The position numbers and the translations under genes were made by a program. From assembly GCA_041649575.1 (NCBI GenBank), contig JBAZMW010000003.1, positions 30,001 to 62,000 on the forward strand: DNA of 32,000 bases. The letters run 5' to 3'. The stretch comes from Patescibacteria group bacterium. Its GTDB lineage: Bacteria; Patescibacteriota; Patescibacteriia; 2-01-FULL-39-33. The notes beneath the pieces were generated by a model. That model made no database searches. It saw only the letters and a list, made by a program, of their open reading frames with translations, and was not told where the DNA came from. Shown one piece after another: positions 287 to 20,968 of this stretch (position 1 is the first letter of the stretch; every line of letters starts with the position of its first letter).

Positions 287-315
287 TTGACAAAAATATT
301 GAAGTATGATATAAT
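287..315 (+). promoter_or_regulatory. Perfect consensus sigma70 promoter (TTGACA-17 nt-TATAAT) upstream of GC island 1
   Basis: TTGACA at 287-292, 17-nt spacer at 293-309, TATAAT at 310-315. It lies about 70 nt upstream of the ATG at 386. Confidence 0.5.
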
Positions 316-385
316 AGTAAATGTGAGTGTTTTAGAGAAATAGAGGAAAACAGCCAAAAACCGTGAGACATAGGAGGACTGCAAG

Positions 386-751
386 ATGAAAGTTCTTTTC
401 AAAACCGGCTGGCTGGTAGGCCGCCGCAAGTGGGCAAGCCGCCGGCGGCGCAGCAAAGCGTGGAAGCAGTTGAAGCGGGAGACCAACTGCCTCGAAGGTA
501 TACTCCGCAGAATGGAGATGTACCACTCGTTGGAGAACTGGACTTCCCGAGAAGGGAAGGATATCAACAATAGAATGGTACTCCGTGAGGCGGCGGCCCA
601 ACTCCCCAAGGTGGCGTCCGCGGAACAGCAATGCCGCCGCGTCGGCGTCAAGGAGGACGAGCTCGTCGCCATAGGAGAGCGACGAGCGCAGCATTGGAAG
701 ATGGTGAGCGTAGTAGAACTGAGCCGCGCCGTAAACACGGCCGGGCTCTAA
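386..751 (+). CDS. Hypothetical basic soluble protein (121 aa), no domain recognised
   Basis: AGGAGG at 372-377 sits 8 nt before the ATG. Third codon positions are GC-rich in this frame. Several overlapping ORFs on both strands look like GC-driven shadows. Confidence 0.55.
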   Translation: MKVLFKTGWLVGRRKWASRRRRSKAWKQLKRETNCLEGILRRMEMYHSLENWTSREGKDINNRMVLREAAAQLPKVASAEQQCRRVGVKEDELVAIGERRAQHWKMVSVVELSRAVNTAGL

Positions 752-769
752 CCGCGAAAGGAGAAGACC

Positions 770-1246
770 ATGAGCAACAAGCTGTTTGGGACCAGAGCCG
801 CACTGTTCGCCTTGCCCATGATGGCGCTGGGCTGGACGTTGGTATTCGCGATCAAAAGGGGGTACACCGAAGAACTGGAGGCGTTGTTGTATGCTTCCTT
901 CCTCTTCGCAGGGCTGACCTACTTCTGTTTGGCCGCCACCTGCGCCACCGCGTGCTACGACTGCTGCCGGCAGTTGTTGGGACGGCTGGAGAAAGCCTGG
1001 GCTGCCCGTACGGCCAAGGTGTCGGTGATCTGGTACGCCAACATAGCGGCCGGGGCAGCAATACTGCTGGTGGCCATCTACCTGGTGGCCTACCAGGTCG
1101 ACTGGCTCGAGTTCTTCGAGCTAAGGACGATGAGAGACAACGTACTACTCATCCTCCTGGCGACGCTGCTCGGCAGCGTCGGAGTGGCCGTCGGCGCCGG
1201 CACCAGCAATATGCTATCTATTCGCCTGTCACAGACGGACGAGTAG
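770..1246 (+). CDS. Hypothetical integral membrane protein (158 aa, about 4 TM helices, Cys cluster CATACYDCC)
   Basis: AAGGAG at 758-763 sits 6 nt before the ATG. There are four hydrophobic stretches (AALFALPMMALGWTLVFAI, ALLYASFLFAGLTYFCLAATCATACY, VIWYANIAAGAAILLVAIYLVAY, VLLILLATLLGSVGVAVGAG). Confidence 0.65.
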   Translation: MSNKLFGTRAALFALPMMALGWTLVFAIKRGYTEELEALLYASFLFAGLTYFCLAATCATACYDCCRQLLGRLEKAWAARTAKVSVIWYANIAAGAAILLVAIYLVAYQVDWLEFFELRTMRDNVLLILLATLLGSVGVAVGAGTSNMLSIRLSQTDE

Positions 1247-1257
1247 CTCGCAGTCAA

Positions 1258-1300
1258 CCGCCCCCAGAGTGAAAACTCTGCGGGGCGGTGAATTATTTTT
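1258..1300 (+). terminator. Intrinsic terminator after the 770..1246 CDS
   Basis: CCGCCCCCAGAG (1258-1269) pairs with CTCTGCGGGGCGG (1276-1288), giving 12 bp with one bulged C and loop TGAAAA. TGAATTATTTTT follows. Confidence 0.6.
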
Positions 1301-1305
1301 AACTC

Positions 1306-1334
1306 TTGACAACCCAGAAGCAATGCTCTAATAT
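1306..1334 (+). promoter_or_regulatory. Near-consensus sigma70 promoter (TTGACA-17-TAATAT) internal to island 1
   Basis: TTGACA at 1306-1311 and TAATAT at 1329-1334. Its position argues that the ATG at 1338 is not the real start of the next CDS. Confidence 0.45.
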
Positions 1335-1373: not shown

Positions 1374-1640
1374 ATGGCAACTATCATCCTTGTACTTTCA
1401 GCAATCGGGGCATTATGTAGCTGGCTGATGGAATTCTCCCTGCCGCCAGACTCGCGCTTTGCTGGCAACTGGTGGGCGGAGAACAGCATCACCATCGTGT
1501 TCTGGAGTAATATGGTTCTAAGCGCCATAGTGATCGTCTTGGAGTACGCCGCCCAGAAGATCCAACAGCGAAAGAAGACGCGGGGAGGAGTCTGGCTGAA
1601 GCGCAGAAATAGGGAGTGGGATGAGAAGGAGGCCCACTGA
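1374..1640 (+). CDS. Hypothetical small membrane protein (88 aa, 2 TM, strongly basic C-tail)
   Basis: I trimmed the track ORF 1338..1640 to the ATG at 1374, because GGAGGA (1362-1367) lies 6 nt upstream and 1338 abuts the -10 box. The two TM segments are MATIILVLSAIGALCSWLMEF and ITIVFWSNMVLSAIVIVLEYAA. The tail is QKIQQRKKTRGGVWLKRRNREW. Confidence 0.6.
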   Translation: MATIILVLSAIGALCSWLMEFSLPPDSRFAGNWWAENSITIVFWSNMVLSAIVIVLEYAAQKIQQRKKTRGGVWLKRRNREWDEKEAH

Positions 1641-1662: not shown

Positions 1663-1705
1663 ACGTCCGACACCGGTGACTTTAGGTGTCGGACGTATTC
1701 TTTTT
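1663..1705 (+). terminator. Intrinsic terminator closing island 1 (could also serve convergent uppS)
   Basis: ACGTCCGACACC (1663-1674) pairs perfectly with GGTGTCGGACGT (1685-1696). ATTCTTTTT follows. Confidence 0.7.
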
Positions 1706-1715
1706 GAAAGATAAT

Positions 1716-2425: not shown

Positions 2426-2496
2426 TCGGGCTGCGCGGAATTGAACCGCGATTACACGCACCCGAAGCGTGCGTAATACCGTTATACCACAGCCCG
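2426..2496 (-). tRNA. tRNA-Pro (anticodon CGG), 71 nt, no encoded CCA
   Basis: I hand-folded the reverse complement. Acceptor CGGGCTG pairs with CAGCCCG. Anticodon stem CACGC pairs with GCGTG, with loop TTCGGGT (anticodon CGG). T arm is CGCGG-TTCAATT-CCGCG. The discriminator is A. Confidence 0.85.
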
Positions 2497-6256: not shown

Positions 6257-6538
6257 CTAGAGAACCGCTTCTTTGGCGGCTTTGGCGACTCGGAATTTAA
6301 CCACGGTTTTAGCCGGGATCCTGATGCTTTCGCCGGTAGCTGGGTTGCGGCCTTCGCGGGCTTTGCGCTGGACTTTGACCAGCTTGCCTAGTCCCGGAAC
6401 CACAAACTCGCCATTTTTCTTGACTTCGGAATAAGCCATATCGGTCAGCTTATCCAACAAAGCCACTACGTCTTTCTTGGCCAGGCCAGTGGCATCGGCC
6501 AGAGAACTCATTAACTGTGACTTGGTCATTTTAGCCAT
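6257..6538 (-). CDS. hup: HU/IHF-family nucleoid DNA-binding protein
   Basis: 93 aa. The sequence GLGKLVKVQRKAREGRNPATGESIRIPAKTVVKFRVAKAAK is the HU beta-arm signature. Confidence 0.9.
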   Translation of the reverse strand: MAKMTKSQLMSSLADATGLAKKDVVALLDKLTDMAYSEVKKNGEFVVPGLGKLVKVQRKAREGRNPATGESIRIPAKTVVKFRVAKAAKEAVL

Positions 6539-6654
6539 AAACTTTCAAGTTAATTATTAATTATGATTAATTGTTAATTAAACGATTCTACTTGCTGCAC
6601 TTATCCACAGGTTTTATTATATTTCAATTCTATAGAAAAAACAAGGGAAAAGCA

Positions 6655-6701
6655 AAGATTTTTTAAAAAATAAAGCCCGACTCGAAACAAATCGAGTCGG
6701 G
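6655..6701 (-). terminator. Intrinsic terminator downstream of the MFS gene
   Basis: CCCGACTCGA (6676-6685) pairs with TCGAGTCGGG (6692-6701). On the minus strand CTTTATTTTTTAAAAAA follows. Confidence 0.7.
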
Positions 6702-7999
6702 TGGAAACCCTCGCCGTCATCAGCGAGAATTAAATGTCCGGTGATAGGTGGCGATCATAACCAAGCCGGCCAAAAGCGCGCTGACGCCCAAAAGCTCCAA
6801 GCAGAAAGCTAGCGACCAGTATTTGACCGCCAGACCGAACAGGCCCAGCGACACAACGCCGGCCACGCTGTTGGCGGTGGATTTGATGGAGGCGACCGTG
6901 GCTCGGTTCTCGCTGTCGAGGTGCCGGTGCAGGAAAAAGCCTAGGAAAGGCGTCATATATCCCCTGACCAAATTCTGCATCAAGATCAGAAGAACCGCCC
7001 ACTTGGTCACCCACGCGCCCATCAGCCAAATAGGCAAAGCGATCAGTAGCACCATTAGAACGATGCCGCCGAACTCGCCACAGCGCCGAGTGATTCGCTC
7101 GGCCTCATGACTGCTAATGGCGGCCACCACATTGAGCAGACAGAACATCCAGCCGAAATACTTGAGCGGCAATTCTACCAGCTCGAAGTAGGGGTTGTAG
7201 GTGAAAAACCAGATCTTGGAAACGGCGCCAATAAGCACCGAGAAGCCAATAACCCACTTCACCTGCCGGTGGTTGTAAACGAAAAGAGCGCTCAGCTTGA
7301 GCAAACGGAAATACTCTTGCCAGCTTTTCTCTCGCTTGATAATTACTGGCGGGTCGATCATACGATAAGCGGCCACGCAAGCGATAATCATAAACGGCAC
7401 GCCCAGCCAGACCGGCAAACGCAAGTTGACCTCCGCCAAATAGCCCACTGTGGCAGAACAAGCCGCGACCAAAGCCAGCCGGTAGGCGCTGGAGCGACCC
7501 TCGATTTTCTGGAACTCACTTTCCCGTCCCAAGAATTTCAAGGTGTCGGCCAGCATTGAGGTGTCGGCGCCAGAGATTAGCGACGCGCCTATAACCCACA
7601 GAAAATTGGCCAGCCAAATCGTCAAGGGACTAGTGGCGCTGGCAAAGACGGCCAGCTTGACGGACCAGACGCAAATGCCAATCAAGATGGTAAGGCGCCG
7701 GCCGAGCAAATCGGCCAAAGCGCCACAGGGACAATCCAGCAGAACAATGCCAACCACGCAGACCGCCTCCATTAAGTAGATATCCGAGAGCGTCATGCCC
7801 GACACCCGATTGATGAAGGTGATGAGTATCGGGCCCCAAAACAGCGGCTCCTTGAACACCTGAAACCAGAAGTACAACTTGATGTTTCTTTCGGCTTGCT
7901 CTCGAGTCATGGCAGACCTCCTCTTCTATCGCCAGGCGATGTGTTAAAGTGCGATTTTTTCCAAACAGACAAACAAAAACCTCGGCTGTCTGGCCGAGG
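6700..7999. other. GC-rich island 2 (MFS transporter cassette)
   Basis: My hand count of line 7441-7500 gives 40/60 G+C. The flanking hup and 8224..10227 genes are visibly AT-richer. Confidence 0.7.
6720..7910 (-). CDS. MFS-superfamily transporter (396 aa, about 12 TM)
   Basis: GALADLLGRRLTILIG matches MFS motif A (G-x-L-A-D-x-x-G-R-R/K) between TM2 and TM3. The profile is hydrophobic throughout. GAGGAGG lies 6 nt upstream of the ATG. Confidence 0.85.
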   Translation of the reverse strand: MTREQAERNIKLYFWFQVFKEPLFWGPILITFINRVSGMTLSDIYLMEAVCVVGIVLLDCPCGALADLLGRRLTILIGICVWSVKLAVFASATSPLTIWLANFLWVIGASLISGADTSMLADTLKFLGRESEFQKIEGRSSAYRLALVAACSATVGYLAEVNLRLPVWLGVPFMIIACVAAYRMIDPPVIIKREKSWQEYFRLLKLSALFVYNHRQVKWVIGFSVLIGAVSKIWFFTYNPYFELVELPLKYFGWMFCLLNVVAAISSHEAERITRRCGEFGGIVLMVLLIALPIWLMGAWVTKWAVLLILMQNLVRGYMTPFLGFFLHRHLDSENRATVASIKSTANSVAGVVSLGLFGLAVKYWSLAFCLELLGVSALLAGLVMIATYHRTFNSR

Positions 8000-8005
8000 A
8001 GGTCT
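7914..8005 (-). promoter_or_regulatory. Candidate RNA control region: terminator hairpin overlapping an anti-SD that is perfectly complementary to the MFS ribosome-binding site
   Basis: On the minus-strand RNA, AGACCUCCUC (8005-7996) is the exact reverse complement of GAGGAGGUCU (7923-7914), which contains the MFS SD. This element shares 4 nt with the 5' arm of the hairpin CCUCGGC/GCCGAGG (7999-7993 / 7986-7980). UUUUUGUUUG follows the hairpin. Confidence 0.4.
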
Positions 8006-8031
8006 TATTATTTAGATTAGTTTTAACTTAT

Positions 8032-8148
8032 TTAAGAAATAAATAATTTAAACACCGCCTGGGCCAAACCACGAGAAAAAATGTCAGCAGGGACATAATC
8101 CAAGCCGGAGTTCTTCATAATAGTCTGGTGTTTAAATTCTAGTTTCAT
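8032..8148 (-). CDS. Possible 38-codon leader ORF (MKLEFKHQTIMKNSGLDYVPADIFSRGLAQAVFKLFIS)
   Basis: Below the ORF-track length cutoff; I translated it by hand. The ATG is about 19 nt downstream of the predicted start of the perfect promoter at 8174-8202. There is no SD, as with other backbone genes. It may not be translated. Confidence 0.25.
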   Translation of the reverse strand: MKLEFKHQTIMKNSGLDYVPADIFSRGLAQAVFKLFIS

Positions 8149-8173
8149 AATATTAATTTTACTTGCTGTTTGT

Positions 8174-8202
8174 ATTATAGTATACAAATAATTTTTTGTC
8201 AA
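8174..8202 (-). promoter_or_regulatory. Perfect consensus sigma70 promoter (TTGACA-17-TATAAT) on the minus strand
   Basis: The minus strand reads TTGACA (8202-8197), then aaaaattatttgtatac (17 nt), then TATAAT (8179-8174). It points toward the small ORF and the MFS gene. Confidence 0.45.
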
Positions 8203-8223
8203 ATTTAAAAGTATTATTAAATT

Positions 8224-12396: not shown

Positions 12397-12444
12397 AAAA
12401 AATAAAATAAAAACAAAAGTCCCCGCCGCATTGCTTTGGCGAAG
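12397..12444 (-). terminator. Intrinsic terminator closing the leftward operon of island 3
   Basis: On the minus-strand RNA, CUUCGCC pairs with GGCGGGG (7 bp including two G-U pairs, 10-nt loop). ACUUUUGUUUUUAUUUUAUUUUUU follows. Confidence 0.5.
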
Positions 12445-12475
12445 ACGAGATGGAAGACAAGGAACCGGCGTCAGA

Positions 12476-12823
12476 CTAGCTGACGATTGCCTCTTCATCG
12501 TCCTGACGGAACCACTGCCAGGTCAGATAGAGGGCATAGAGCGGCAGCCAAAACGGCAGCTTGGCTACCAGGACGAGCCAGGCCGACAGTAGTATTGTAT
12601 GCAGCAATATAGTGCCACACCAGGTCTGATTAATCCAATTACTACGTCGTAGAATGGCTTCGACGCGGTTGGGCCACGACTTCTCGTAGCACAAGGCGCG
12701 GAAGAAACCGACCGCCAGGCTGCGGATGTAGATCACGGGCACGAACAGCGCGACGAACACGGCCCAGACCACCAGGATAAACGCAAAGATCAAGTAAACC
12801 TCCGGTGTGCTTAGCATTCTCAT
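12476..12823 (-). CDS. Hypothetical small membrane protein (115 aa), paralogue of 12845..13174
   Basis: AGGAGGG lies 7 nt upstream of the ATG. It shares with its neighbour the TM1 segment FVALFVPVIY (versus FLAIFFVPVF), a basic loop, two further TM helices and an acidic C-tail (WFRQDDEEAIVS versus FWDYDDRYAD). Confidence 0.6.
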   Translation of the reverse strand: MRMLSTPEVYLIFAFILVVWAVFVALFVPVIYIRSLAVGFFRALCYEKSWPNRVEAILRRSNWINQTWCGTILLHTILLSAWLVLVAKLPFWLPLYALYLTWQWFRQDDEEAIVS

Positions 12824-12844: not shown

Positions 12845-13174
12845 TCAGTCGGCGTAACGGTCATCGTAATCCCAGAAGAAGAAGCTCAACTCCGAACAGA
12901 CGGTGGCGAAGGTCGCCCATACAGGCAGAGAGAACCACAATGCCGCGGCGAATAGGGTGGCCAAGGAATCGGCTACCAGACCGCCCAGGCGCGTACCCTC
13001 AACACACTGTCGCCGGTAGAGCCACCGCCGGAACCTCATTGGCAGTTGATCCGGGCCGAAGAGAACGTCGGCCACCCACACACAAAACACGGGGACAAAG
13101 AAAATCGCCAGAAATGCCACGCCGACGACCACGACCGACACAAAATTCCAAACAGCACAGATAGCCTTCTTCAT
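12845..13174 (-). CDS. Hypothetical small membrane protein (109 aa), paralogue of 12476..12823
   Basis: I trimmed the track ORF 12845..13204 to MKKAICAVWNF (ATG 13174), because GGGAGGG lies 6 nt upstream. It has the same architecture as the downstream gene, 21 nt away. Confidence 0.6.
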   Translation of the reverse strand: MKKAICAVWNFVSVVVVGVAFLAIFFVPVFCVWVADVLFGPDQLPMRFRRWLYRRQCVEGTRLGGLVADSLATLFAAALWFSLPVWATFATVCSELSFFFWDYDDRYAD

Positions 13175-13190
13175 GGCCTGCCCTCCCGCT

Positions 13191-13320
13191 AGTTGAATGA
13201 ACACGAATCCATCTTAGCAAAATAGTGGAAAAAATTCAACTGCCGCTAATTGACAAAAGGATAAAATTTTTATAAGATGATTTAAGGCCAAAAACGGCTT
13301 TGACTATGTACATTCAACTG
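13191..13320. promoter_or_regulatory. Divergent promoter region of island 3 with three copies of ATTCAACT
   Basis: The rightward promoter is TTGACA (13250-13255), 17 nt, TAAGAT (13273-13278). The leftward promoter is TTGAAT (complement of 13234-13239), 17 nt, TAAGAT (complement of 13211-13216). The motif occurs at 13191-13199 (inverted, AGTTGAATG), at 13234-13242 (ATTCAACTG, overlapping the leftward -35) and at 13311-13320 (CATTCAACTG). Confidence 0.45.
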
Positions 13321-13340
13321 GGATATGGAGGCGAGAAGCC

Positions 13341-14144
13341 ATGAAGACCACTTTGGCAACTAGCGAAATCCGCCATGCGAGACACGAACTAGAGGAAAAA
13401 CTGCGCCAGGGCGGGCAAGTCACCATGGCGAGAGGCAGGCGACAATGGGTGGGACAACTCGCTCTGGATCAGCCGACATGCGCGCTAGTCGTGCGGGCGG
13501 GCGGGCCGACTTTCAGTAGCAAGGGGGTGGAGGGCGGCTCCTTCCGGTGCAACCAGACGGGGCACATCGTCAAAGGAACGCAGACCAATACTTTCCGGGC
13601 GCGGATCTGTGGCGGGGCCATTTGCAAGCCACCGCCGAACACTGAAACATCAACAAACACTTCGGCGCACTCCTCGACGACCTCGAACCGCTCCTCGTCC
13701 TCGAGCAGCATACCAACCGTCGAGTGGACAGAGGGCAACGCGGTGTACTGCCCAAGCTGTGGTCGGTCGAAATATGTCTCTGGTGGGGGCACGGTTCAGT
13801 GCTTGGGTGCCGGCTGCTATAAGAAATTCAATGTGGTCGATCGCCGACCGCCGCCAACCGTGGAGGCCGACCGGAGCGGGAATGCGGAGTGCCCGAAGTG
13901 CTACAAGGCCAACAACATCGGCGGTTCCAGAGAGCGGATCATCACCTGTTGGTATTGCGGGAAGGAGTTTATTGCCATTCCTCCCAAGATCCAGCCGAGC
14001 GAACAACTACAGACCGTGCACCGCAACCTTTCTTATAACGACGCGCTTTGCCCTCACTGCAACAGAATAACGGTGGCCGTGGAGGATGGGCTGGTGGATT
14101 GCACGCACTGCGGCAAGAGCTTCAACGCCGACTCGAACGCCTGA
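13341..14144 (+). CDS. Hypothetical protein with three tandem zinc-ribbon (CPxC...CxxC) modules and a Ser/Thr-rich linker (267 aa)
   Basis: GGAGG lies 9 nt upstream of the ATG. The repeats are YCPSCGRSKYVSGGGTVQCLGAGCYKKFNV, ECPKCYKANNIGGSRERIITCWYCGKEFIA and LCPHCNRITVAVEDGLVDCTHCGKSFNA. The linker is TETSTNTSAHSSTTSNRSSSSSS. Confidence 0.7.
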   Translation: MKTTLATSEIRHARHELEEKLRQGGQVTMARGRRQWVGQLALDQPTCALVVRAGGPTFSSKGVEGGSFRCNQTGHIVKGTQTNTFRARICGGAICKPPPNTETSTNTSAHSSTTSNRSSSSSSIPTVEWTEGNAVYCPSCGRSKYVSGGGTVQCLGAGCYKKFNVVDRRPPPTVEADRSGNAECPKCYKANNIGGSRERIITCWYCGKEFIAIPPKIQPSEQLQTVHRNLSYNDALCPHCNRITVAVEDGLVDCTHCGKSFNADSNA

Positions 14145-14173
14145 AACACAAGGAGAAACACGCACAATCAACA

Positions 14174-14208
14174 GGAGACCAGCAGTACCGGTCTCCCGTT
14201 TTCTTTTT
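14174..14208 (+). terminator. Intrinsic terminator closing island 3
   Basis: GGAGACC (14174-14180) pairs with GGTCTCC (14190-14196) around a 9-nt loop. CGTTTTCTTTTT follows. Confidence 0.65.
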
Positions 14209-14231
14209 AAAAAATATTTAAGAGAGAATGG

Positions 14232-14927: not shown

Positions 14928-15819
14928 TTATTTCTATGTTATTTTCGTTATTGCCGGCGCTGGTTTCGGCTGCCGCTTCCTTAGCCGTACCTAATTTTTC
15001 TAAGGCCTTTAGAGCTTCGGCCGGCCGGCCCAAAAAGTAGCGCTTGCCGTCTTTGGGGCCAACATACCAGGCCTGCCCCTGGCCCTCGATTTGCAACAGG
15101 ATCAGGCCCTTACGAGCATTAGAAAACTTTTGATCCAGCGGCAGCTTGCCGTTTCCCAGCGGATTATAGCCGCCTAAAATTTCGTCTTTGTCGGGAAAAC
15201 CGTCATCATCTGAATCGGCCTTGGCTTTATCGGTGCCCAAAGCTTCTTCCAAGGCATCGGACAGGCCGTCTTGGTCGCTGTCCAGGCCGCTGAAATTATA
15301 ATCAGCCAAAGCTATTTTTGACAAATCATTATTGGAAACAGGCAAAGACAAATCGGTAAGCATTTTAAAAACATTGGCATTGTCAGCGCCCAGCTGAACC
15401 CTGAATTCTTCGTATTGGCTCAGCTGGCCGGTCTTTTCCTCCAGGGTTTTTTTGAATTCCTCGGTCTTTTGATCCAACAGTTTTTGACTTTCGGAAGCCG
15501 TCTGTTGCAGCTGCGTCAGTTGAGTCTGCTTTTGCGTCAACTGGCCTTCTTTGTCGGCCAGATCTTTGGCTTTCTTGCTGTTTTCCTGTTCAACCGCAGT
15601 AATTTTTTCCAGCAGCTTGGTGTTGTCCAGATAAATTTTCACCGCGTATGCCGCCATGCCGGCGAAAACGACGATGATAATGGCATAAAAAACCCAGCGC
15701 TGATAGCGCCTGATTTTGATTTCCTGGCCAACCTGCTCGTGCGGCACAATGGCAATGCCGCAATTGGGGCAAGATTCGGAAAAATTGGGAATTTGCCGAT
15801 GACAATTAGGACAAATCAT
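14917..15819 (-). CDS. Zinc-ribbon / TM / coiled-coil protein with thrombospondin-type-3-like Asp repeats (hypothetical)
   Basis: MICPNCHRQIPNFSESCPNCG, then one TM helix, then a Gln/Lys heptad region, then DSDQDGLSDALE...DSDDDGFPDKDE. Confidence 0.65.
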   Translation of the reverse strand: MICPNCHRQIPNFSESCPNCGIAIVPHEQVGQEIKIRRYQRWVFYAIIIVVFAGMAAYAVKIYLDNTKLLEKITAVEQENSKKAKDLADKEGQLTQKQTQLTQLQQTASESQKLLDQKTEEFKKTLEEKTGQLSQYEEFRVQLGADNANVFKMLTDLSLPVSNNDLSKIALADYNFSGLDSDQDGLSDALEEALGTDKAKADSDDDGFPDKDEILGGYNPLGNGKLPLDQKFSNARKGLILLQIEGQGQAWYVGPKDGKRYFLGRPAEALKALEKLGTAKEAAAETSAGNNENNIEINVE

Positions 15820-15866
15820 ATTTTTAGTTTATTTGTTTCTATGTTGATAATTATAGCAAATTTAAT

Positions 15867-15895
15867 TAAACAAGAACAATCAACTGTGATATAAT
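15867..15895 (+). promoter_or_regulatory. Extended -10 promoter for the 15931 operon
   Basis: TGaTATAAT at 15887-15895. A weak -35, TAAACA, sits at 15867-15872. Confidence 0.35.
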
Positions 15896-15930
15896 TAAAA
15901 ATGATAGAAAAAATATTAACTTAAAAAAAT

Positions 15931-16587
15931 ATGACCGACAAAAAACCGCTGTTGCGGCAGGTGATGAAAAGGGGCGACTGGGTTCGCCTGGTTATTTTGC
16001 TTATTTTTTGGATAGCTTGCTATTCTTGGGTGTGGTGGGAGTATCAGAAGCCGATTGATATTAACATAATGATCAACGAGGCCGCCAGCGAACAAGTGGA
16101 AATCGTCCAAACCAAAGACGGCCAGCTGGTAAAAAATCTGGCGGCCGGGTACGAGGTGACTGTGCCAAAAGGCTGGTTTGTAAAAAATGTTAGCTCTGTT
16201 ATAGAAATTTACAATCGCTTTAATAACGAGGCCAGCGACTCGGAGGCTTATTATGGTTGTCAAAATGACATTAATAGTGTCAATCTTAATGGACACAGTT
16301 TAAATGACTGGTTAAAGTCAATAGATCAAGATCGAACCGGAACGGAAGAATCCGAGCCATCAAAAACGAAAATAGTTAGGGAGGAGGATATAAAGATAGA
16401 CGGTAAAAAAGGTATAAAAAGAATATATAACCCGCCAATGGGTCCAGAGTATACCCAGACTTACATTATAAATAATGAGGATGTATTAGTAATTACGCAG
16501 CTGATTGGTGTGGTAAATCAAAATGAAAAAGAAATTTGCGAAAGGGATCTTAATAAAATTATAAACAATATTTCTTTTTATAAATAA
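15931..16587 (+). CDS. Hypothetical membrane-anchored protein (218 aa)
   Basis: It has one N-terminal TM helix (WVRLVILLIFWIACYSWVWW). Its stop is 2 nt before the next start. I recognise no domain. Confidence 0.55.
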   Translation: MTDKKPLLRQVMKRGDWVRLVILLIFWIACYSWVWWEYQKPIDINIMINEAASEQVEIVQTKDGQLVKNLAAGYEVTVPKGWFVKNVSSVIEIYNRFNNEASDSEAYYGCQNDINSVNLNGHSLNDWLKSIDQDRTGTEESEPSKTKIVREEDIKIDGKKGIKRIYNPPMGPEYTQTYIINNEDVLVITQLIGVVNQNEKEICERDLNKIINNISFYK

Positions 16588-16589
16588 AC

Positions 16590-19500
16590 ATGTTTTTTAG
16601 GGGGCTCAGTTTACTCTTCATAATATTTTTTTTATTGATAATGGTATTACCTACATCACTTCATGCCGATGAGGCCTTTTTAGTTTTTCCTTTTTTAAAA
16701 AAATATGAAATTTCATGCTCATGGGGATGCTATAGCGGGCACAAAGGGACCGACTACCGTGTAAACACGGGTACAGATGTGGTCGCGGCCGCCGGAGGTG
16801 TAATAAAAAAACAAATTAATATACTCCAAGACAACGAGAAAAAAAAGGGTAGTTTTGGAAACTACACGATAATTGATCATCTTAATGGCTATCAAACGAT
16901 ATACTCGCACCTGCAAATTAATAGTATGCAGTTAAAGGAAGGCGATAAAGTTAGGGTTGGAGAAATAATAGCTAAATCCGATAATAATGGGGCTTCTACT
17001 GGCCCTCATCTACACTTTGAAATTAGAAAAAATAATATTGCTTTAGATCCATACAAAAATAATCTGTGGCTTTTAGATGAAAATAAAAATATTATTATTT
17101 TAAATGACATGGAAGAAAAAGACGATCAAAAGAATAATAAACCTACAATTACACAACCAGCCCCAGAAACACCTTGGTGGCAAAAAATTTTTGATTGGTT
17201 TAAAAAATTATTCGAAAGAAAAAGCGGCGAGGTAGCCAGCGAACAGGAAAGCCAAGCTCCAGCACCCGACCCCAAATTAGAAAACCAGGAAAATTTCGTC
17301 CCGCCGGACAAAATTTTTAACGCCGCTTATGTTTCCCAGAGCTCATATCTAAACTTGAACGCCGGAGAGACCGCCACTCTTTCTGTAAATTTAAAAAATA
17401 CCGGCAACACCGACTGGACTCCGGGCCAAGTTTCGTTAAACCTCAACAACTCCGGAGAAAGTTCTCCTTTTCATCACAACTCGTGGCTCACCGCCAGAAG
17501 ACCGGCCAGACTGGATCAGCCCCGGGTTAAGCCCGGCCAAACCGGCAGCTTCACTTTTATCATTCAAGCTCCGAAACAAAAGGGCGTTTACCAACTGTTT
17601 GTCAGACCGGTCTACCAGGATGAACTCGGCTTCCATTGGTTAGGGTCGGATTTGGGAATTTTTTGGCTGATCAACGTGGCCGAGACGGCCACAATAGCGG
17701 AATTGCCAGAAACAACGGCGCCGGAGACAGCCCAAGAAAAAGGAATGGAAGAAAAAATAACGGAACCGGAAAATAAACAGGAAAAACCAGAGGAACCAAT
17801 TACCGCGCCGAGCACTGGCGGCAGCAGCGGTGGAGAAAGTGGCGCCGACAATAATCAGTCTAGCGCTTATCCCCCGCCCGCCCCAGTCATAACCTTGCCG
17901 ACAACCGAGGAAGAACTGCTTATCGGCTCTACCTCCACCATCAAACTGGCCGGCACCAAAACGCCAAATAGCGCCACGATTTTTATTTGGCACAACGATC
18001 AACTGACAGAAATTAACAGCTTTCCCGAAGCCGGCAGTTGGCAAGCAGATTTCACTTTAACGGCAGGCGATAATTTTTTCCGCGTGGCGGCCGCCAGTAG
18101 CGCCGGCAACATCTCCGACGAAGACAAATTAAAAATAATTTACGATTCGACTCCCCCGCCAGCCGTTTCTGATTTGCAGGCTGGACGTATAACCAGTTCC
18201 ACGGCGCAAATAATTTTTACTCCGCCCGAAGCCAACCTGACTTTTGACTTGCGTTACTCTTTGGACAACTTAGATATAAACGGCTGGGACAGCGCCAGCG
18301 GCACTGCCAAAATCATAGAAGGCGCCAGCGACACTTCCACTATTTCTCTGCTAGTGGAAAACTTAGACCAGCTGCCAAAGCTGAAGTTTTATCTGCGCGC
18401 TCAAGACGCCGCCGGCAACCTGTCCGGGCTTTCCAACCAAGCCATGATAACCGTTTTACCGGCCATCGGTGAGGTTAACGGCTTTGAAATAACGCCCAGC
18501 TCCCTTTTGGCCCAATGGCTCTTGCCCAACTTTACCGTCAAAAACAGCGCCGCCGAAACAGAGGCCCGCTATTCATTAGAGCCGATTAATGAAAGTAATT
18601 TTTCCCAAGCCACCAAGATTGAAAATGTTTTACCGGCCACGCCCAACATGGTGGCCGAGGCCTATTTGCCAAACCTCTCATCTGGCACGGATTATTATCT
18701 GGCTCTAAAATATTCGGATGGCCTGAACTGGTCGGAAATTTTTTATTCGGCAAAAATCACCACCACGCAAAACTACTCGCAAATTAACGGCGGCGCCAAC
18801 TGCGCTTTTATCTCCGATCACGAGTTAAAAACCGCCAATGGGCCATATTTGATAACCGGGCAAGTTTATCTTTACTGGCATAAAAAATTGACCATTGAGC
18901 CGGGGACAATTCTGAAATTCAAGAGCGGCGGCAGTATTTTTGCTTTGGGATCGATAGAGGCGAAAGGCGCGGCCAGCGCGCCAATAATTTTCACCGCTTT
19001 TGGCGATGATGAGTTTGGCGGCGACAGCAATAATGATGGCGCGGCCTCCTCGCCCGCCTTTGGCGATTGGCAGGGAGTTATCATCAGAAATTCCCCAACC
19101 GCTCAAGTGGACTTGGATTATGTGAAAATCAAATACGCCAAAGACGCCTTAAGTATTGGCGGCGTGGATAAAACAAACATTGCCAACAGCGAAATCTCCA
19201 ACTCGTCGCGACGGGCTTTGAGCCTGATAAATATTAATAATGTTTTGGTAACCAAAAATAATATTATAAATAATAAGTTGGGGATTTACTTAGATAACGG
19301 CAAGCCAACTGAAGTTTCTTTCAATAATATAAAAAACAATAATCTTGGCACTTTTGAAGAAGAATCTGGCGGCTTGGTATTGGCCGAGTCCGACGGCCTT
19401 AATCTAACCAACAATAATATTTATAATAACAACTTCTGGGGAATTTTTGCTTTTGACGGCTTAAATTTCAATGCCGCTAATAATTATTATGGCGCGGCCG

Positions 19501-19631
19501 AAGGGCCGATTAAGATGACCATGGGAGAATTTTTGGCCGACCCGCACCAATATGATGGTCGCGGAGAGCGCGACATCATCCATGGAGATTTCAACTATAA
19601 TAATTTCTCGCCGACGGAAATTGTTTTCTAA
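16590..19631 (+). CDS. Secreted M23 (LytM-type) peptidase fused to Ig/FN3-like modules and a right-handed beta-helix (1013 aa)
   Basis: It has a signal peptide. The M23 motifs are HKGTDYRV (HxxxD) and GPHLHFEIR (HxH). The linker is Pro/Glu-rich. The C-terminus has repetitive N-rich stretches (NIANSEISNSS.., VTKNNIINNKLGIYL, NLTNNNIYNNNFWGI) typical of PbH1 beta-helix repeats. Confidence 0.8.
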   Translation: MFFRGLSLLFIIFFLLIMVLPTSLHADEAFLVFPFLKKYEISCSWGCYSGHKGTDYRVNTGTDVVAAAGGVIKKQINILQDNEKKKGSFGNYTIIDHLNGYQTIYSHLQINSMQLKEGDKVRVGEIIAKSDNNGASTGPHLHFEIRKNNIALDPYKNNLWLLDENKNIIILNDMEEKDDQKNNKPTITQPAPETPWWQKIFDWFKKLFERKSGEVASEQESQAPAPDPKLENQENFVPPDKIFNAAYVSQSSYLNLNAGETATLSVNLKNTGNTDWTPGQVSLNLNNSGESSPFHHNSWLTARRPARLDQPRVKPGQTGSFTFIIQAPKQKGVYQLFVRPVYQDELGFHWLGSDLGIFWLINVAETATIAELPETTAPETAQEKGMEEKITEPENKQEKPEEPITAPSTGGSSGGESGADNNQSSAYPPPAPVITLPTTEEELLIGSTSTIKLAGTKTPNSATIFIWHNDQLTEINSFPEAGSWQADFTLTAGDNFFRVAAASSAGNISDEDKLKIIYDSTPPPAVSDLQAGRITSSTAQIIFTPPEANLTFDLRYSLDNLDINGWDSASGTAKIIEGASDTSTISLLVENLDQLPKLKFYLRAQDAAGNLSGLSNQAMITVLPAIGEVNGFEITPSSLLAQWLLPNFTVKNSAAETEARYSLEPINESNFSQATKIENVLPATPNMVAEAYLPNLSSGTDYYLALKYSDGLNWSEIFYSAKITTTQNYSQINGGANCAFISDHELKTANGPYLITGQVYLYWHKKLTIEPGTILKFKSGGSIFALGSIEAKGAASAPIIFTAFGDDEFGGDSNNDGAASSPAFGDWQGVIIRNSPTAQVDLDYVKIKYAKDALSIGGVDKTNIANSEISNSSRRALSLININNVLVTKNNIINNKLGIYLDNGKPTEVSFNNIKNNNLGTFEEESGGLVLAESDGLNLTNNNIYNNNFWGIFAFDGLNFNAANNYYGAAEGPIKMTMGEFLADPHQYDGRGERDIIHGDFNYNNFSPTEIVF

Positions 19632-19663
19632 AAACCTCCGATATATACCGCTTCCAAAACCAA

Positions 19664-19692
19664 TTGACGAGCCGGTTTTTTTGTGATAATTT
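19664..19692 (+). promoter_or_regulatory. Promoter upstream of island 4 (TTGACG-17-TAATTT, or extended -10 TGtGATAAT)
   Basis: TTGACG at 19664-19669. TGTGATAAT at 19682-19690. Confidence 0.4.
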
Positions 19693-19759
19693 AAGGTCGC
19701 TAGTCCTTTTTGGTTTGGATGGGTCTTAGACGCAACGCACGTAACAAGGAGAACCAATC

Positions 19760-20902
19760 ATGACCATTAGAGTTGAGACGTTGGGTGAGCAGGCACTGGG
19801 CATGCTAGCAATGCTGTATAAGGACAGTCGTCCGGCAGCCATTCACCTGCAAGGAAGGCAGGTGTTCGTGAGAAAGCCAAACGGCCAGGCCGAGATCCTC
19901 GAGCTGGCGCTCGATTTCTCTTGGCCCCAAGCGCTTCTGGGCAACCGGATGCCGGAGAACCCCTCGGCCGTCTTCATGCTGGAGCTGCCGTGGCCGACAA
20001 TGGAGGAGTCAGAGAAAGCCGGAGCAGAACCCCGGCAGCCGACGCAGACGTTCCTGCGCTTCAAGGCGATCTCCTTAAACGGAGCGCTCACCCTCTTCCC
20101 GATCTGGCGGCCGATCGGCAATGCATTGGCTTGTTCAGATGAGCCAATCTTGCACTTCCCCGCCCTCAAATCGCCTCTGGTACCAGACTGGCCGACGGTA
20201 TTTGAGACAAGCCGCGGACTGGTCATCATCTCGGGCGAACGCCGCTCCGGCCGCACCATTACGGCCATGTCGCTCATCAACAGGCTCAGAGAGAATCGAA
20301 AGATAGCCATGGGCCTGATCGAACGGGCAGCCGAACACGCATTGAATGAAACGGCTGGGTTTATCGAACGGGTCGAGCTGGGGTTTGACGGTAACTGGCC
20401 TGAAGCCGTGAACCTGCTCGATCGGAGAAACTTCGATGTCATCTACCTGGAGGAAATCCCGGACGTCGCCACGCTGAATCAGGCAATCAGTGCCGCCGAA
20501 TCGCGTCTGGTCATCGCCTGCGGCCCCTCCCGCTCGGTGACGGAAACGCTGGAATGTCTGCTGGAAATGGAGCCGGACCGCGCGCGCAACGAAGGTTTGC
20601 GCCGACGGCTGGCCAGGGTGCTGGTGGGCATCATAGGCCAAGTTTTGGTGCCGAACAAAGGCGGCTCCGCGCTGGCACCGGCCACCGAAATTCTGGTGAA
20701 GACGCCGGCGGTTCACAACCTGATCCGCGAAGACAAGACCTTCCGAATCCTCGAATCCATGCGTACCGGGCATAAGTACGGAATGCTCACACTGAACGAG
20801 GATCTTCTGCGCCTGGTCAATGGTGGCTACGTTGACAAAGAAGCCGCCTTGGCCGCCTCTTACATGCCGGAAGAGCTGGAAGAGCTCCTCGGAAAGAAAT
20901 AG
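19760..20902 (+). CDS. PilT/PilU-family secretion-ATPase homologue with degenerate catalytic motifs (380 aa)
   Basis: AAGGAG lies 8 nt upstream of the ATG. The C-terminal half aligns by eye with PilT. TPAVHNLIREDKTFRI matches TPAIRNLIREDK, and GMLTLNEDLLRLVNGGYV matches GMQTLD..L..LV..G.I. The catalytic motifs are altered. Walker A is GERRSGRT (canonical GPTGSGKS). The Asp box is LIERAAEH (canonical TIEDPIEF). The His box is LVIACGPSRS (canonical GHLVFGTLHT). Walker B is DVIYLEEIPD (canonical DIILVGEMRD). Confidence 0.85.
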   Translation: MTIRVETLGEQALGMLAMLYKDSRPAAIHLQGRQVFVRKPNGQAEILELALDFSWPQALLGNRMPENPSAVFMLELPWPTMEESEKAGAEPRQPTQTFLRFKAISLNGALTLFPIWRPIGNALACSDEPILHFPALKSPLVPDWPTVFETSRGLVIISGERRSGRTITAMSLINRLRENRKIAMGLIERAAEHALNETAGFIERVELGFDGNWPEAVNLLDRRNFDVIYLEEIPDVATLNQAISAAESRLVIACGPSRSVTETLECLLEMEPDRARNEGLRRRLARVLVGIIGQVLVPNKGGSALAPATEILVKTPAVHNLIREDKTFRILESMRTGHKYGMLTLNEDLLRLVNGGYVDKEAALAASYMPEELEELLGKK

Positions 20903-20926
20903 AAAGGCTGCTATCGCACAACAAAC

Positions 20927-20968
20927 GAGCCGTCTGACGCGCACAGCGCCAGGCGGCTCTCTCTATTT
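20927..20968 (+). terminator. GC-rich hairpin terminator closing island 4
   Basis: GAGCCGTCTG (20927-20936) pairs with CAGGCGGCTC (20950-20959) with one G-U pair. It encloses an inner GCGC-aca-GCGC. TCTCTATTT follows. Confidence 0.55.

Follow-up and report, generated by a model that had tools for sequence, protein, structure and literature searches.

Four GC-rich islands between housekeeping genes

The window, by which we mean the whole 32,000-nucleotide stretch of DNA analysed here, carries GC-rich islands at about 330-1710, 6700-8000, 12420-14210 and 19735-20970, where GC in 300-nt windows reaches 0.51-0.64 compared to about 0.40-0.49 in the flanks. The initial annotation had placed four GC-rich segments at these positions, and 300-nt GC, per-gene GC3 and dinucleotide signature all show a step there. 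Its hand counts of 40-42 G+C in 60 nt (67-70% GC) hold as local peaks but not as typical values, the means being 54-60%. The four islands themselves were confirmed, and the observation with all its details partly so. Island genes have a GC of 0.54-0.60 and a GC3 of 0.69-0.82, against 0.34-0.48 and 0.32-0.57 for backbone genes between 1 and 22 kb, with the exception of HU (0.525 and 0.61). In dinucleotide signature, islands and backbone lie 167 apart (within-backbone null 41 ± 13, maximum 87), whereas distances between islands (68-115) fall inside their null of 85 ± 29, so the signature is common to all four. Two-fold codon choice is reversed in the islands (TTC 0.72 versus 0.23 in the backbone, AAG 0.70 versus 0.30), and their proteins contain more Arg (7.1% versus 3.6%) and less Lys (3.9% versus 7.5%).

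All four islands are set, as had been claimed, between intact genes: rarA and uppS (island 1), HU and a 38-aa ORF plus a 674-aa gene (island 2), uvrD and a DUF333-Gmad2 gene (island 3), and M23 and S11 peptidase genes (island 4). The eight CDSs were also as described, namely five membrane proteins (one of them an MFS transporter), a basic protein, a triple zinc-ribbon protein and a degenerate PilT homologue (Table 1). Neither mobility machinery nor target duplications were found at the islands, nor repeats at their boundaries, and there was no viral carrier. For the six orphans I1a, I1b, I1c, I3a, I3b and I3c the searches run detected no relative that would trace their origin. Family searches with I1a gave no match, and it is a singleton cluster; I3c yielded weak zinc-ribbon profile matches only and no relative in PDB, plasmid or viral searches. 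The start of I3b was taken as the ATG at 13174 and not the GTG at 13204, since the Shine-Dalgarno (SD) site precedes the codon-10 ATG of the longer ORF; the NCBI call is likewise 109 aa.

Table 1. Coordinates of island genes and associated elements in the window († placed by reading the sequence).
Feature	Position	Strand	Description
Island 1 promoter	287..315	+	TTGACA-17-TATAAT with TG, 12/12 consensus; divergent from rarA
I1a	386..751	+	121 aa, basic soluble orphan; SD dG -10.2; GC 0.596, GC3 0.74
I1b	770..1246	+	158-aa orphan membrane protein, about 4 TM; GC3 0.82; SD dG -8.7
Terminator after I1b†	1258..1300	+	intrinsic; GC-rich 13-bp hairpin + T-run
Second island 1 promoter, for I1c	1306..1334	+	TTGACA-17-TAATAT, 10/12
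I1c	1374..1640	+	88-aa orphan membrane protein, 2 TM; GC3 0.70; SD dG -9.5; start as NCBI
Bidirectional terminator, I1c and convergent uppS	1663..1705	.	12-bp hairpin between A-run and T-run
MFS module terminator	6666..6701	-	10-bp hairpin + T-run
I2, MFS transporter	6720..7910	-	396 aa; Pfam MFS_1, E 6e-14; SD dG -12.7
Conserved leader RNA	7941..7999	-	hairpin 7999-7980 + U-run; segment 7968-7961 complementary to hairpin loop; CTTTAACAC box 7949-7941
Conserved leader ORF	8032..8148	-	38 aa, MKLEFKHQ...SRGLAQAVFKLFIS; GC 0.37; SD dG about 0 (AT-rich, without SD)
MFS module promoter	8174..8202	-	TTGACA-17-TATAAT, 12/12; upstream of leader ORF
Terminator-like hairpin after I3a†	12400..12446	-	hairpin + T-run
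I3a	12476..12823	-	115-aa Trp-rich (8 Trp) orphan membrane protein; GC3 0.73; SD dG -10.7
I3b	12845..13174	-	109-aa orphan membrane protein; SD dG -10.8
I3c promoter	13250..13278	+	TTGACA-17-TAAGAT, 10/12
I3c	13341..14144	+	267-aa basic orphan, S/T-rich linker, three zinc ribbons (three CxxC...CxxC pairs); SD-led
I3c terminator	14174..14208	+	GGAGACC...GGTCTCC hairpin + T-run
Putative I4 promoter†	19664..19690	+	TTGACG, 15-nt spacer, extended -10 TGTGATAAT
I4, predicted PilT-family pseudo-ATPase	19760..20902	+	380 aa; SD-led
Hairpin after I4†	20927..20969	+	weak T tail

The canonical SD site noted on every island CDS was verified by duplex energies of -8.5 to -12.7 kcal/mol, and the units do end in a hairpin and T-run, although the T tail of I4 is weak. 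The further claim that each island has its own near-consensus sigma70 promoter held for I1a-I1b, I1c and I3c but not throughout: the I4 candidate has a short spacer and was unlisted by our consensus scan, the best site for I3b-I3a matches at 8/12 positions only, and the MFS promoter falls outside the island as first delimited. These results bear out the islands as genuine biological units of expression, complete in themselves and set between housekeeping genes, whose composition is atypical and similar from one island to the next; the initial interpretation as a whole is partly supported.

The product of I4 matched TIGR01420 with an E-value of 8e-40, below the cut-off in score (137 versus 319 bits), and PDB PilT with an E-value of 3e-29. 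Its Walker A motif reads GERRSGRT and the motif AVHNLIREDK is kept; both His-box histidines are gone. The clade's own PilT and the best PilTs retrieved from databases score about the same against it (119-123 bits), and neither word-indexed searching of 5.8 billion proteins nor tblastn of fetched loci gave a relative above 36% identity. In L021, too, a GC-rich SD-led gene occupies the slot that follows the M23 peptidase gene.

Two gene classes distinguished by their ribosome-binding sites

The main new result is that the genes fall into two classes by ribosome-binding site, and that this pattern recurs in related genomes. Strong SD sites precede 8/8 island genes and none of about 25 backbone genes (0/25; Fisher P-value = 7e-8), a split that was unchanged whichever candidate start was used. 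The complete lack of SD sites on backbone genes had escaped the initial annotation. Start regions of island genes are more strongly folded (-11.5 versus -6.2 kcal/mol in the backbone; P-value = 0.002), and the GC of the upstream 30 nt is 0.47-0.63 compared to 0.07-0.43. Across 80 related loci, with an internal control of 6%, 19/38 GC outliers were SD-led compared to 87/1318 other genes (odds ratio 14, P-value = 2e-12). SD-led genes in these loci were shorter, had a GC3 higher by 0.078, more often encoded multi-TM proteins (odds ratio 2.0) and followed a longer intergenic gap, while ordinary genes of these genomes lack SD sites and have extremely AT-rich, weakly structured leaders. Taken together, these results show a minority gene class across the clade: its members are short, higher in GC than other genes, led by an SD site and transcribed separately, and membrane proteins are over-represented among them.

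GC outliers of relatives resemble the islands of the window (signature distance 74) more than the backbone (143-171), and about two dozen related genomes have them, at a GC that scales with the host. Outlier GC3 follows that of its own genome (r = 0.87, slope 0.9) at an offset of +0.24 ± 0.05. GC-richer relatives in our sample showed no SD enrichment, and therefore no donor lineage accounts for GC richness and SD sites occurring together. It has been previously reported that the anti-SD is absent in about half of Parcubacteria and that bS21 is frequently missing in this group (PMC9297842).

An ancestral slot and an MFS module in changing neighbourhoods

Comparison with relatives showed that island 1 is an ancestral expression slot whose cargo varies. 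An element ATTGACAA-N17-TGCTATAAT also adjoins rarA in L014, L016, L020, L022, L026, L028, L042 and L004, and the island 1 promoter is the ancestral promoter of the slot. L027, L034 and L040 carry no gene in the slot. In L004, L010, L012, L014, L016, L020, L021, L022, L026, L030 and L042 its cargo is non-homologous, GC-rich and SD-led, so that about a dozen relatives carry other small membrane-protein genes of this kind here. The initial annotation had named the same genes with host-like composition at the same sites as evidence against a biological reading; at uppS/rarA relatives mostly have different genes, GC-rich again. One slot family, A, to which I1b is not homologous, occurs in six genomes at 22-33% identity with the same slot and promoter and is GC-rich in every one. 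Together with the tracking of host GC3, this is easier to reconcile with long residence during which the offset was kept than with import time and again.

Island 2 was shown to be a complete regulatory module that occurs in other neighbourhoods in other SD-poor genomes. Searches with the MFS protein gave 216 homologues at E ≤ 1e-30, of which the best reached 56% identity, and metagenome relatives of up to 70%. Among 45 orthologues, 35 have an SD duplex dG of -7 or lower, compared to about 10% of their neighbour genes, and 41 have a positive GC3 offset. Orthologues of the leader ORF (37-40 aa, ending in ...GLA(Q/K)AVFK) lie 5' of the MFS gene in 13 other loci, and equivalent consensus promoters precede the leader ORF in L089, L092 and L096. 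The hairpin motif TCGGCYAG..CCGAG..TTTT was found in 15 MFS loci and, apart from the window's own copy, in 0/80 Buchananbacteria-like loci. Pairing of the loop with the downstream segment spans 8-11 bp and was matched by at most 3/500 shuffles in 7/11 sequences; L096/L100 have a covarying variant. No Rfam family matched this leader RNA. The closest MFS relatives (70% and 65% identity) belong to AT-leaning, SD-poor genomes, one of them a named Patescibacteria contig, and share the leader ORF, hairpin, SD site and consensus promoter. Neighbours of the module differ in every genome examined, and in the genome of L092 the MFS identity (65%) exceeds that of UvrD (59%).

Origin of the islands

An artefact, either metagenomic mis-assembly or a deliberate promoter-RBS-ORF-terminator construct, might be suspected from the tidy order of elements and the sharp GC steps, and both had been proposed. 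A chimera is refuted by independent assembly: one Logan contig (SRR8542065) covers positions 6359-23111 of the window (16.7 kb) with 0 mismatches, a second carries rarA-I1a-I1b-I1c-uppS, and all eight island junctions are recovered between them. The island proteins are on record from NCBI, JGI, ENA and Logan assemblies. The window is thus natural metagenome sequence from a Patescibacteria MAG and very probably not an engineered construct, and unrelated environmental MAGs show the same layout; we regard an artefact of either kind as extremely improbable.

We favor, with a probability of roughly 0.55, the reading that the islands are portable accessory-gene modules of the clade-wide class in a Buchananbacteria-like Patescibacteria chromosome. 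They form six transcription units that stand on their own, with a promoter, leader, strong SD, at least one ORF and a terminator apiece, and their cargo (membrane proteins, PilT pseudo-ATPase, zinc-ribbon and basic proteins) is accessory. Recombination may have brought such modules into permissive intergenic slots and exchanged them there, drawing on an accessory gene pool common to Patescibacteria rather than on a foreign host. Initiation on island genes probably relies on SD-anti-SD pairing, because GC-rich structured start regions could not use the native SD-independent mode. The earlier suggestion of a dispersed system targeted to intergenic sites survives insofar as the same slots are reused recurrently, but neither targeting machinery nor repeats were found.

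A possible, though clearly less probable, alternative is a native, vertically inherited regulon that is not mobile, in which selection, for example through an anti-SD-availability switch, holds codon usage and SD sites, and in which fast sequence evolution and rearrangement explain the differences between genomes. Family A with its constant slot and promoter, the SD conserved in the MFS family across SD-poor genomes, the GC3 offset that follows the host and the GC step from AT-rich leader ORF to MFS gene inside one co-inherited unit all agree with it, and Bacteroidia, whose ribosomes ignore SD sites while rpsU retains a strong one, provide a precedent (PMC9976891, PMC13000453). However, it does not readily accommodate the changing neighbours of the MFS module, its higher identity than UvrD to the L092 genome, or the non-homologous cargo and empty slots among relatives. 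Furthermore, 8 of about 22 genes in the window belong to the class, compared to 2.8% GC outliers in relatives, which looks like local gain. We know of no force that would hold GC3 0.24 higher in a gene subset, and HU, probably highly expressed, lacks the codon reversal. The initial annotation had also raised a recent multi-site acquisition from one high-GC donor, perhaps the host. Spelled out, this would be an SD-using, non-Patescibacteria donor of about 60% GC such as a host cell, whose DNA was taken up and entered several intergenic sites more or less simultaneously. The common GC3 and dinucleotide signature, canonical SD sites missing from the recipient's own genes, six proteins without detectable relatives, only distant PilTs for I4, and Arg-rich, Lys-poor proteins, which imply long evolution at high GC, would suit such a donor. 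We nevertheless consider it poorly supported and unlikely: the closest MFS relatives share the whole leader arrangement in AT-leaning, SD-poor genomes, the family being present in many of these; the promoter and slot of island 1 are ancestral and promoters within the islands are of native type; I4 is as near to the clade's PilT as to the best database matches, with at most 36% identity to anything found; and the phenomenon recurs, scaled to the host, in about two dozen related genomes.

Comparison with known systems

I4 aligns with the type IVa pilus retraction ATPases PilT/PilU over residues 122-372 and keeps an AIRNLIRE-type motif. It differs from them in lacking the Walker A lysine and the Asp-box aspartate besides the His-box histidines, in an unrelated N-terminal region of 120 residues and in its sub-threshold profile score. 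Leader-peptide attenuation controls efflux and resistance genes of the ermC, cat and tet(L) type. The MFS module, judged from its sequence, appears similar in having a short conserved leader ORF behind a strong promoter, followed by a terminator-like hairpin with an alternative pairing, the SD and the transporter gene. However, its leader has no similarity to known leaders or to an Rfam family, its hairpin begins about 32 nt past the leader stop, and its alternative pairing joins the hairpin loop to a downstream segment instead of forming a classical upstream antiterminator.

With integron gene cassettes, including dispersed attC forms, the islands share small one-gene units, foreign-looking composition and accessory or orphan genes; they differ in lacking attC-like conserved ends, an integrase or an array, and most units have their own promoter and an ordinary intrinsic terminator. 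It has been previously reported that ribosomes of Flavobacterium johnsoniae (Bacteroidia) are unresponsive to SD sites and that rare genes such as rpsU are SD-led (PMC9976891, PMC7797042, PMC13000453). The likeness to the window is in the gene-level SD pattern, nearly all genes being SD-less behind A/U-rich leaders beside a small set with strong SD sites. Here, however, the phylum is another one and the SD-led set consists of accessory and membrane genes with GC-rich codons and not of a ribosomal-protein autoregulatory gene.

Like compositionally atypical (horizontally acquired) genes and small genomic islets, the islands deviate sharply in GC, codon and dinucleotide usage, hold accessory or orphan genes, are inserted between conserved housekeeping genes and vary in presence among relatives. 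Unlike these, they lack an integrase, a tRNA target and flanking repeats, one unit has an AT-rich co-inherited leader, and the promoter of island 1 is ancestral. In most cases atypical genes have a lower GC (PMC6028130), and the islands run against this trend, deviating toward higher GC to a degree that scales with the host genome.

Composition of the GC-rich islands

Sliding GC content bore out the four GC-rich segments reported in the initial annotation (positions ~330-1710, 6700-8000, 12420-14210 and 19735-20970; islands 1 to 4), which stand as plateaus of 0.51-0.64 over a background of 0.40-0.49. The 67-70% GC that had been counted by hand describes local peaks only and is no typical value, but the islands are indeed GC-rich, with genes of 0.54-0.60. 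The identities of the eight CDSs matched the earlier description: three genes in island 1 (I1a, I1b, I1c), an MFS transporter in island 2 (I2), three genes in island 3 (I3a, I3b, I3c) and a PilT homologue in island 4 (I4). A separate promoter for each unit, as first described, was found for part of the units, the exceptions being I3b-I3a, with a weak site only, and the MFS gene, whose promoter falls outside the island; the putative I4 promoter is of the extended -10 type with a 15-nt spacer.

We found that the GC3 of island genes (0.69-0.82) lies above that of the remaining window genes, here called the backbone, in 1-22 kb (0.32-0.57), HU being at 0.61. Preferences in two-fold codon families are reversed between island and backbone genes (TTC 0.72 versus 0.23, TAC 0.66 versus 0.25, ATC 0.63 versus 0.22, AAG 0.70 versus 0.30), and the encoded proteins differ in Arg (7.1% versus 3.6%), Lys (3.9% versus 7.5%) and Trp (3.1% versus 1.7%). 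By GC-normalised dinucleotide signature the islands are 167 away from the backbone, compared with a within-backbone null of 41 ± 13 (maximum 87); the distances between islands (68-115) fall within the range for 1.4-kb pieces drawn at random from a single genome (85 ± 29). We ruled out translational selection on highly expressed genes, since HU has an only slightly raised GC3 and no reversed codons, and also a replication-orientation effect, since island genes occur on both strands with respect to the local GC skew.

Codon use in the backbone is context-dependent: where the first two bases are rich in G/C, codons ending in C are preferred (GCC 0.53, GGC 0.57, ACC 0.45), and families beginning with A or T favour T- or A-ending ones (TTT 0.77, AAA 0.70, ATT 0.58). 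This results in high AA/TT, GC and CC/GG dinucleotide ratios, which are common to the whole clade. The pattern is absent from the island genes.

Shine-Dalgarno sites and start regions

A strong Shine-Dalgarno (SD) site precedes each of the eight island genes (duplex dG versus ACCUCCUUA of -8.5 to -12.7 kcal/mol) and none of the ~25 backbone genes, for which dG mostly lies close to 0 and does not fall below -5 in any case (Fisher P = 7e-8). The initial annotation had correctly placed a canonical SD on every island CDS; that backbone genes lack one went unseen. At all candidate starts in the first 40 codons of each backbone gene we found no SD of island strength, so the contrast is not a start-codon artefact. 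GC content in the 30 nt upstream of starts is 7-43% for backbone and 47-63% for island genes, and start regions (-30 to +33) are predicted to fold with means of -6.2 and -11.5 kcal/mol, respectively (P = 0.002). The contrasts in SD and composition thus divide the window into two gene classes, which differ in both composition and initiation signal. A search of the window and of the fetched loci (1.36 Mb) did not recover a 16S rRNA gene.

In several backbone genes, including rarA and uvrD, a -10-like box (TAAAAT, GATTAT) ends 6-7 nt before the ATG (gene starts in 1-248 and 10297-12378), and the rarA arrangement is kept in relatives. Boxes so near the ATG suggest that several backbone genes may be read from leaderless mRNAs.

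Recovery of the islands in independent assemblies

The window belongs to a Patescibacteria MAG, in which it forms part of a contig of 191,558 bp; its locus tags run from WC518_02440 to WC518_02540, and NCBI, JGI, ENA and Logan all have records of the encoded proteins. A 16,753-bp Logan contig from an independent assembly of run SRR8542065 equals positions 6359-23111 with 0 mismatches, and a second, 2,573-bp Logan contig from this run contains rarA, I1a, I1b, I1c and uppS in the order of the window. These two contigs cover the islands and therefore reproduce 8 of 8 island junctions, by which an assembly chimera, one of the explanations first proposed, is effectively excluded. The engineered construct that had also been suggested is likewise effectively excluded, as the same layout is found in unrelated environmental genomes. 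For genome curation, GC-rich islands of this kind should not be discarded as chimeric.

The uppS|rarA slot and GC outliers in related genomes

UvrD homologues (63-66% identity) and a DUF6938 alignment yielded 80 loci, the source MAGs being Buchananbacteria-like and other Parcubacteria; a first genome-collection scan with UvrD had found no relative. When these loci were searched by tblastn, I1a-c, I2 and I3a-c gave no match and I4 matched ordinary PilT genes only. The relatives share the gene order HU, DUF6938, (521-aa gene), SpoU, (78-aa gene), uppS, slot, rarA, in which the slot is the intergenic site of island 1. It is occupied in L004, L010, L012, L014, L016, L020, L021, L022, L026, L030 and L042 and empty in L027, L034 and L040. 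The cargo in those 11 relatives consists of 1-2 small genes on the opposite strand, mostly for membrane proteins; every occupant is GC-richer than its own genome, and an SD is present in those with start regions examined. Six occupants form one family (A2; 22-33% identity), and the remaining ones, I1a-c included, show no homology to family A2 or to one another. A divergent promoter beside rarA (ATTGACAA-N17-TGCTATAAT) is kept in the window as well as in those relatives that have a gene in the slot. With its promoter conserved and its cargo variable, the AT-rich promoter stub that was first taken as island 1's own is an ancestral feature. For islands 3 and 4 the sole comparator is L021, which also has a GC-rich SD-led gene after the M23 peptidase gene. 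At the site of island 2, uvrD directly adjoins HU in L004, L005, L006 and L020, and the 674-aa gene, leader ORF and MFS gene are therefore extra in the window.

In L026 (18621-18986, minus strand), the slot carries two GC-rich genes, one for a 99-aa membrane protein and one for a 121-aa soluble protein whose C terminus has a zinc-ribbon-like CPNC...CYKCC motif. This content echoes the mix of small membrane and zinc-ribbon proteins in islands 1 and 3.

Strong GC outliers account for 38 of the 1,371 genes predicted for the related loci (2.8%) and for 8 of the ~22 genes in 1-22 kb of the window. Of the 38 outliers, half are SD-led (dG <= -7); the share is 7% among other genes and 6% in internal control windows, and in the related loci this association has an odds ratio of 14 (P = 2e-12); when the best candidate start is taken, 55% of outliers are SD-led versus 14-19%. 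Across 81 related loci, SD-led genes make up 5-7% of genes; relative to other genes they are shorter (150 versus 219 aa), higher in GC3 (by 0.078) and more often multi-TM (29% versus 17%; P = 0.01), with a longer intergenic gap upstream and more frequent changes of orientation. The relatives' pooled outliers have a signature distance of 74 from the window islands and of 143-171 from the clade backbones, which are mutually alike (41). Across 24 genomes, the GC3 of outliers follows that of the host genome (r = 0.87, slope 0.90, offset +0.236 ± 0.05), compared with r ~0.38 under a truncation-only null. Over 95 loci, SD-led genes were no more frequent at higher genome GC, by which a GC-rich donor that uses SDs was ruled out among the relatives sampled.

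The MFS module and its leader

I2 matches PF07690 (MFS_1) over residues 27-354 (52.1 bits; gathering cut-off 33.4) and has ~10 hydrophobic segments, in keeping with the 10-12 TM helices of MFS proteins. At E <= 1e-30, exhaustive HMMER searching gave 216 homologues, the most similar at 56% identity, and a metagenome scan with an alignment of MFS homologues gave 80 loci, with identities of 70% in L088 and L089 and 65% in L090 and L092 (the last on a 508,581-bp contig). The nearest relatives lie in SD-poor genomes, one being a named Patescibacteria contig. In loci with flanks, 35 of 45 orthologues have an SD of dG <= -7, compared with ~10% of neighbour genes; 41 of the 45 have a positive GC3 offset, which among the closest relatives is +0.15 to +0.24 in L088, L089, L092, L096 and L100 and +0.03 in L090.

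The leader region of the gene (7941-8202, minus strand) is laid out in the table. Its short ORF belongs to a family of 37-40 aa (consensus M..FKQL...SRGLAQAVFK) present in 14 loci. A segment downstream of the hairpin is complementary to its loop and 5' arm over 8-11 bp, which <=3 of 500 shuffles reach in 7 of 11 sequences; this pairing has a covarying variant in L096/L100, is weak in 4 of the 11 sequences and differs in geometry from a classical attenuator. The leader element also lies upstream of MFS genes in L088-L101, L107 and L124, matches no Rfam family and is not described in the literature searched. We regard it as a candidate new cis-regulatory element, for which a pseudoknot or an alternative hairpin is predicted.

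Positions of features in the window
Feature	Positions	Strand	Remark
Divergent promoter beside rarA	287-315		
tRNA-Pro (CGG)	2426-2496	-	upstream of uppS
CTTTACAAC box	7949-7941	-	SD and MFS gene follow
Sequence-conserved hairpin and U-run	7999-7980	-	pattern present in 15 MFS loci
Leader ORF, without SD, GC 0.37	8148-8032	-	38 aa in the window, MKLEFKHQTIMKNSGLDYVPADIFSRGLAQAVFKLFIS
MFS promoter, perfect TTGACA-17-TATAAT	8202-8174	-	consensus promoters directly upstream of the leader ORF in relatives too
674-aa orphan gene	8224-10248	-	
Peptidase C14, caspase-like	23580-24617		
S24 repressor, LexA-like	24912-25562		
N6/N4 DNA methylase	26181-27449		
HTH protein, small-terminase-like	27451-27861		
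DEAD/ResIII helicase-like protein	27858-29342		
Large serine recombinase	29435-30754		
DUF4411	30791-31312		

The module is flanked by glycosyltransferases and NDK in L089, by GlmS and a beta-CASP nuclease in L092, and by HU and the 674-aa gene beside uvrD in the window. Judged by these relatives, the whole module behaves as a portable unit among SD-poor genomes. The GC step from leader ORF (0.37) to MFS gene (0.55) lies inside this co-inherited unit, so a GC step alone does not mark an insertion junction.

The 674-aa orphan gene, which shares the interval from uvrD to HU with the MFS module, has an internal repeat period of ~384 nt (direct repeats at 9022, 9406 and 9787) and no homologue in the 80 related loci. 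It is native in composition and lacks an SD; orphan status alone is therefore not tied to the GC-rich SD-led class.

I4 and the orphan island proteins

I4 is homologous to PilT at the level of the fold: it aligns with TIGR01420 (E 8e-40, 137 bits, below the family cut-off of 319 bits) and with PilT chains in the PDB (E 3e-29 to 1e-21, residues 130-378), and it retains a C-terminal AIRNLIRE-type motif (AVHNLIREDKTFRI). Its motifs GERRSGRT, MGLIERAAE, DVIYLEEIPD and ES-RLVIACGPS stand in place of GPTGSGKS, IITIEDPIE, DVILVGEMRD and ETGHLVFSTLHT in PilT. The catalytic motifs are thus not preserved, with an altered Walker A (GERRSGRT versus GxxGSGK[ST]) and loss of the Asp-box aspartate and both His-box histidines. 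Similarity to the clade's own PilT (95-120 bits) is about equal to that of the best matches among 5.8 billion proteins (up to 123 bits; best non-self match in a large database 35% identity), so no donor can be named, and phylogenetic placement failed, I4 being at nearly equal distance to all PilTs compared.

All eight island proteins are singletons at 90% identity and have no homology to each other. No relative of I1a-c or I3a-c was detected in any library tried, and PADLOC, PHROGs and NCBIfam gave nothing meaningful for the orphans. Neither a viral carrier of I3c, I4 or the MFS family nor a plasmid or PDB relative of I3c was found.

An AT-rich element beside the islands

Positions 23580-31961 hold an integrative or prophage-like element (GC 0.30-0.42) without SDs. 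It represents the common, AT-rich sort of foreign DNA, beside the GC-rich islands, and the large serine recombinase is part of this separate element and not of the islands. Between the divergent LexA-like gene and a 138-aa gene lie 28 bp (25563-25590); the upstream regions of the two genes carry mutually complementary AGCAAGGGCCTGCTATACTGTA, which may represent an operator or palindrome, and their start regions show unusually strong folding (-20.0 and -12.7 kcal/mol).

Origin of the islands

The best description of the islands is as autonomous modules of accessory genes, belonging to a GC-rich, SD-led class found throughout the clade. This class is present in the related genomes, its members have a modular structure and the slot recurs. 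As to mechanism, we favour, with a probability of roughly 55%, an exchange of modules: these would be gained or replaced by recombination at permissive intergenic slots, from a pool circulating among Patescibacteria, and would be transcribed from sigma70 promoters of native type. They would require SD-led initiation because their GC-rich, structured start regions presumably cannot use the SD-independent initiation of native genes. Both the exchange and the functional need for an SD are what we infer here.

The islands might instead be an SD-dependent regulon that is native and inherited vertically, with selection maintaining its composition, as slot family A2, the SD conserved across the MFS family and the tracking of host GC by outlier composition would lead one to expect. 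We consider this rather unlikely in view of the variable neighbourhoods, the non-homologous slot cargo and the local excess of outliers in the window. One recent import from a high-GC host outside the Patescibacteria, close to the donor import first suggested, seems unlikely: the relatives of the MFS family sit in SD-poor genomes, the island 1 promoter is ancestral and GC-rich SD-led genes recur clade-wide, even though such an import would account for the shared island signature and the SDs.

In a further reading, which we think unlikely, SD-poor Patescibacteria would have two parallel initiation regimes. Bulk genes would start SD-less behind AU-rich leaders, and a GC-rich accessory set, mostly membrane proteins with their own promoter and terminator, would be translated via SD-anti-SD pairing. 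Such an 'SD regulon' could be controlled separately, for example through anti-SD availability as in Bacteroidia, and might be the form in which genes pass between these episymbionts; the MFS gene, as one of its members, would bring with it a leader-peptide and RNA-switch element of a kind not described before.

For Patescibacteria, the literature searched has no description of a gene class that couples GC richness with SD-led initiation; this class, like the MFS leader element, is proposed here from computation on sequence. Atypical GC-rich genes in MAGs are normally filed as horizontal transfer or contamination. Here they coincide exactly with a different initiation signal, and the link between composition and SD recurs across a whole clade of Patescibacteria. 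If functional, this link would mark genes that minimal symbionts regulate separately (transport, pilus control, envelope proteins), would make SD plus GC3 a simple sequence rule for accessory or exchangeable genes, and would bear on why the anti-SD is retained in some Parcubacteria and lost in others. The analysis also exposes a candidate new regulatory leader, located upstream of an MFS transporter family of these SD-poor genomes.

Comparison with known systems

Like genomic islands, the four segments deviate in composition (GC3; signature 167 versus the null of 41 ± 13). Their borders have no direct or inverted repeats, integrase or tRNA target, and no donor lineage with homologues closer than the recipient's relatives was found; the sole RNA gene that Rfam detects in the window, a tRNA-Pro, is not at an island border. 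It has been reported that horizontal transfer in Patescibacteria is frequent and mostly within the group (PMC12455944), and that atypical genes are usually GC-lower, not GC-higher (PMC6028130). Integron gene cassettes have an attC 3' end and an integrase or array context, and are usually promoterless, whereas the islands have unrelated intrinsic terminators and mostly their own promoters; with no shared repeats and no integrase, integron cassettes were ruled out. DGR-type mutagenesis was ruled out by the lack of repeats, and structured non-coding RNA by ORFs that have family matches or an SD with coding GC1/2/3, the Rfam match being to tRNA only.

The MFS module resembles a leader-peptide transcription attenuator in having a conserved short ORF between promoter and gene. 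The anti-SD motif is missing in about half of Parcubacteria, and in this group bS21 is often absent (PMC9297842). For initiation, the closest parallel is with Bacteroidia, whose ribosomes ignore SDs, rpsU retaining one (PMC9976891, PMC13000453). As in this SD-unresponsive system, the backbone genes described here are SD-less behind A/U-rich leaders (0 of 25).
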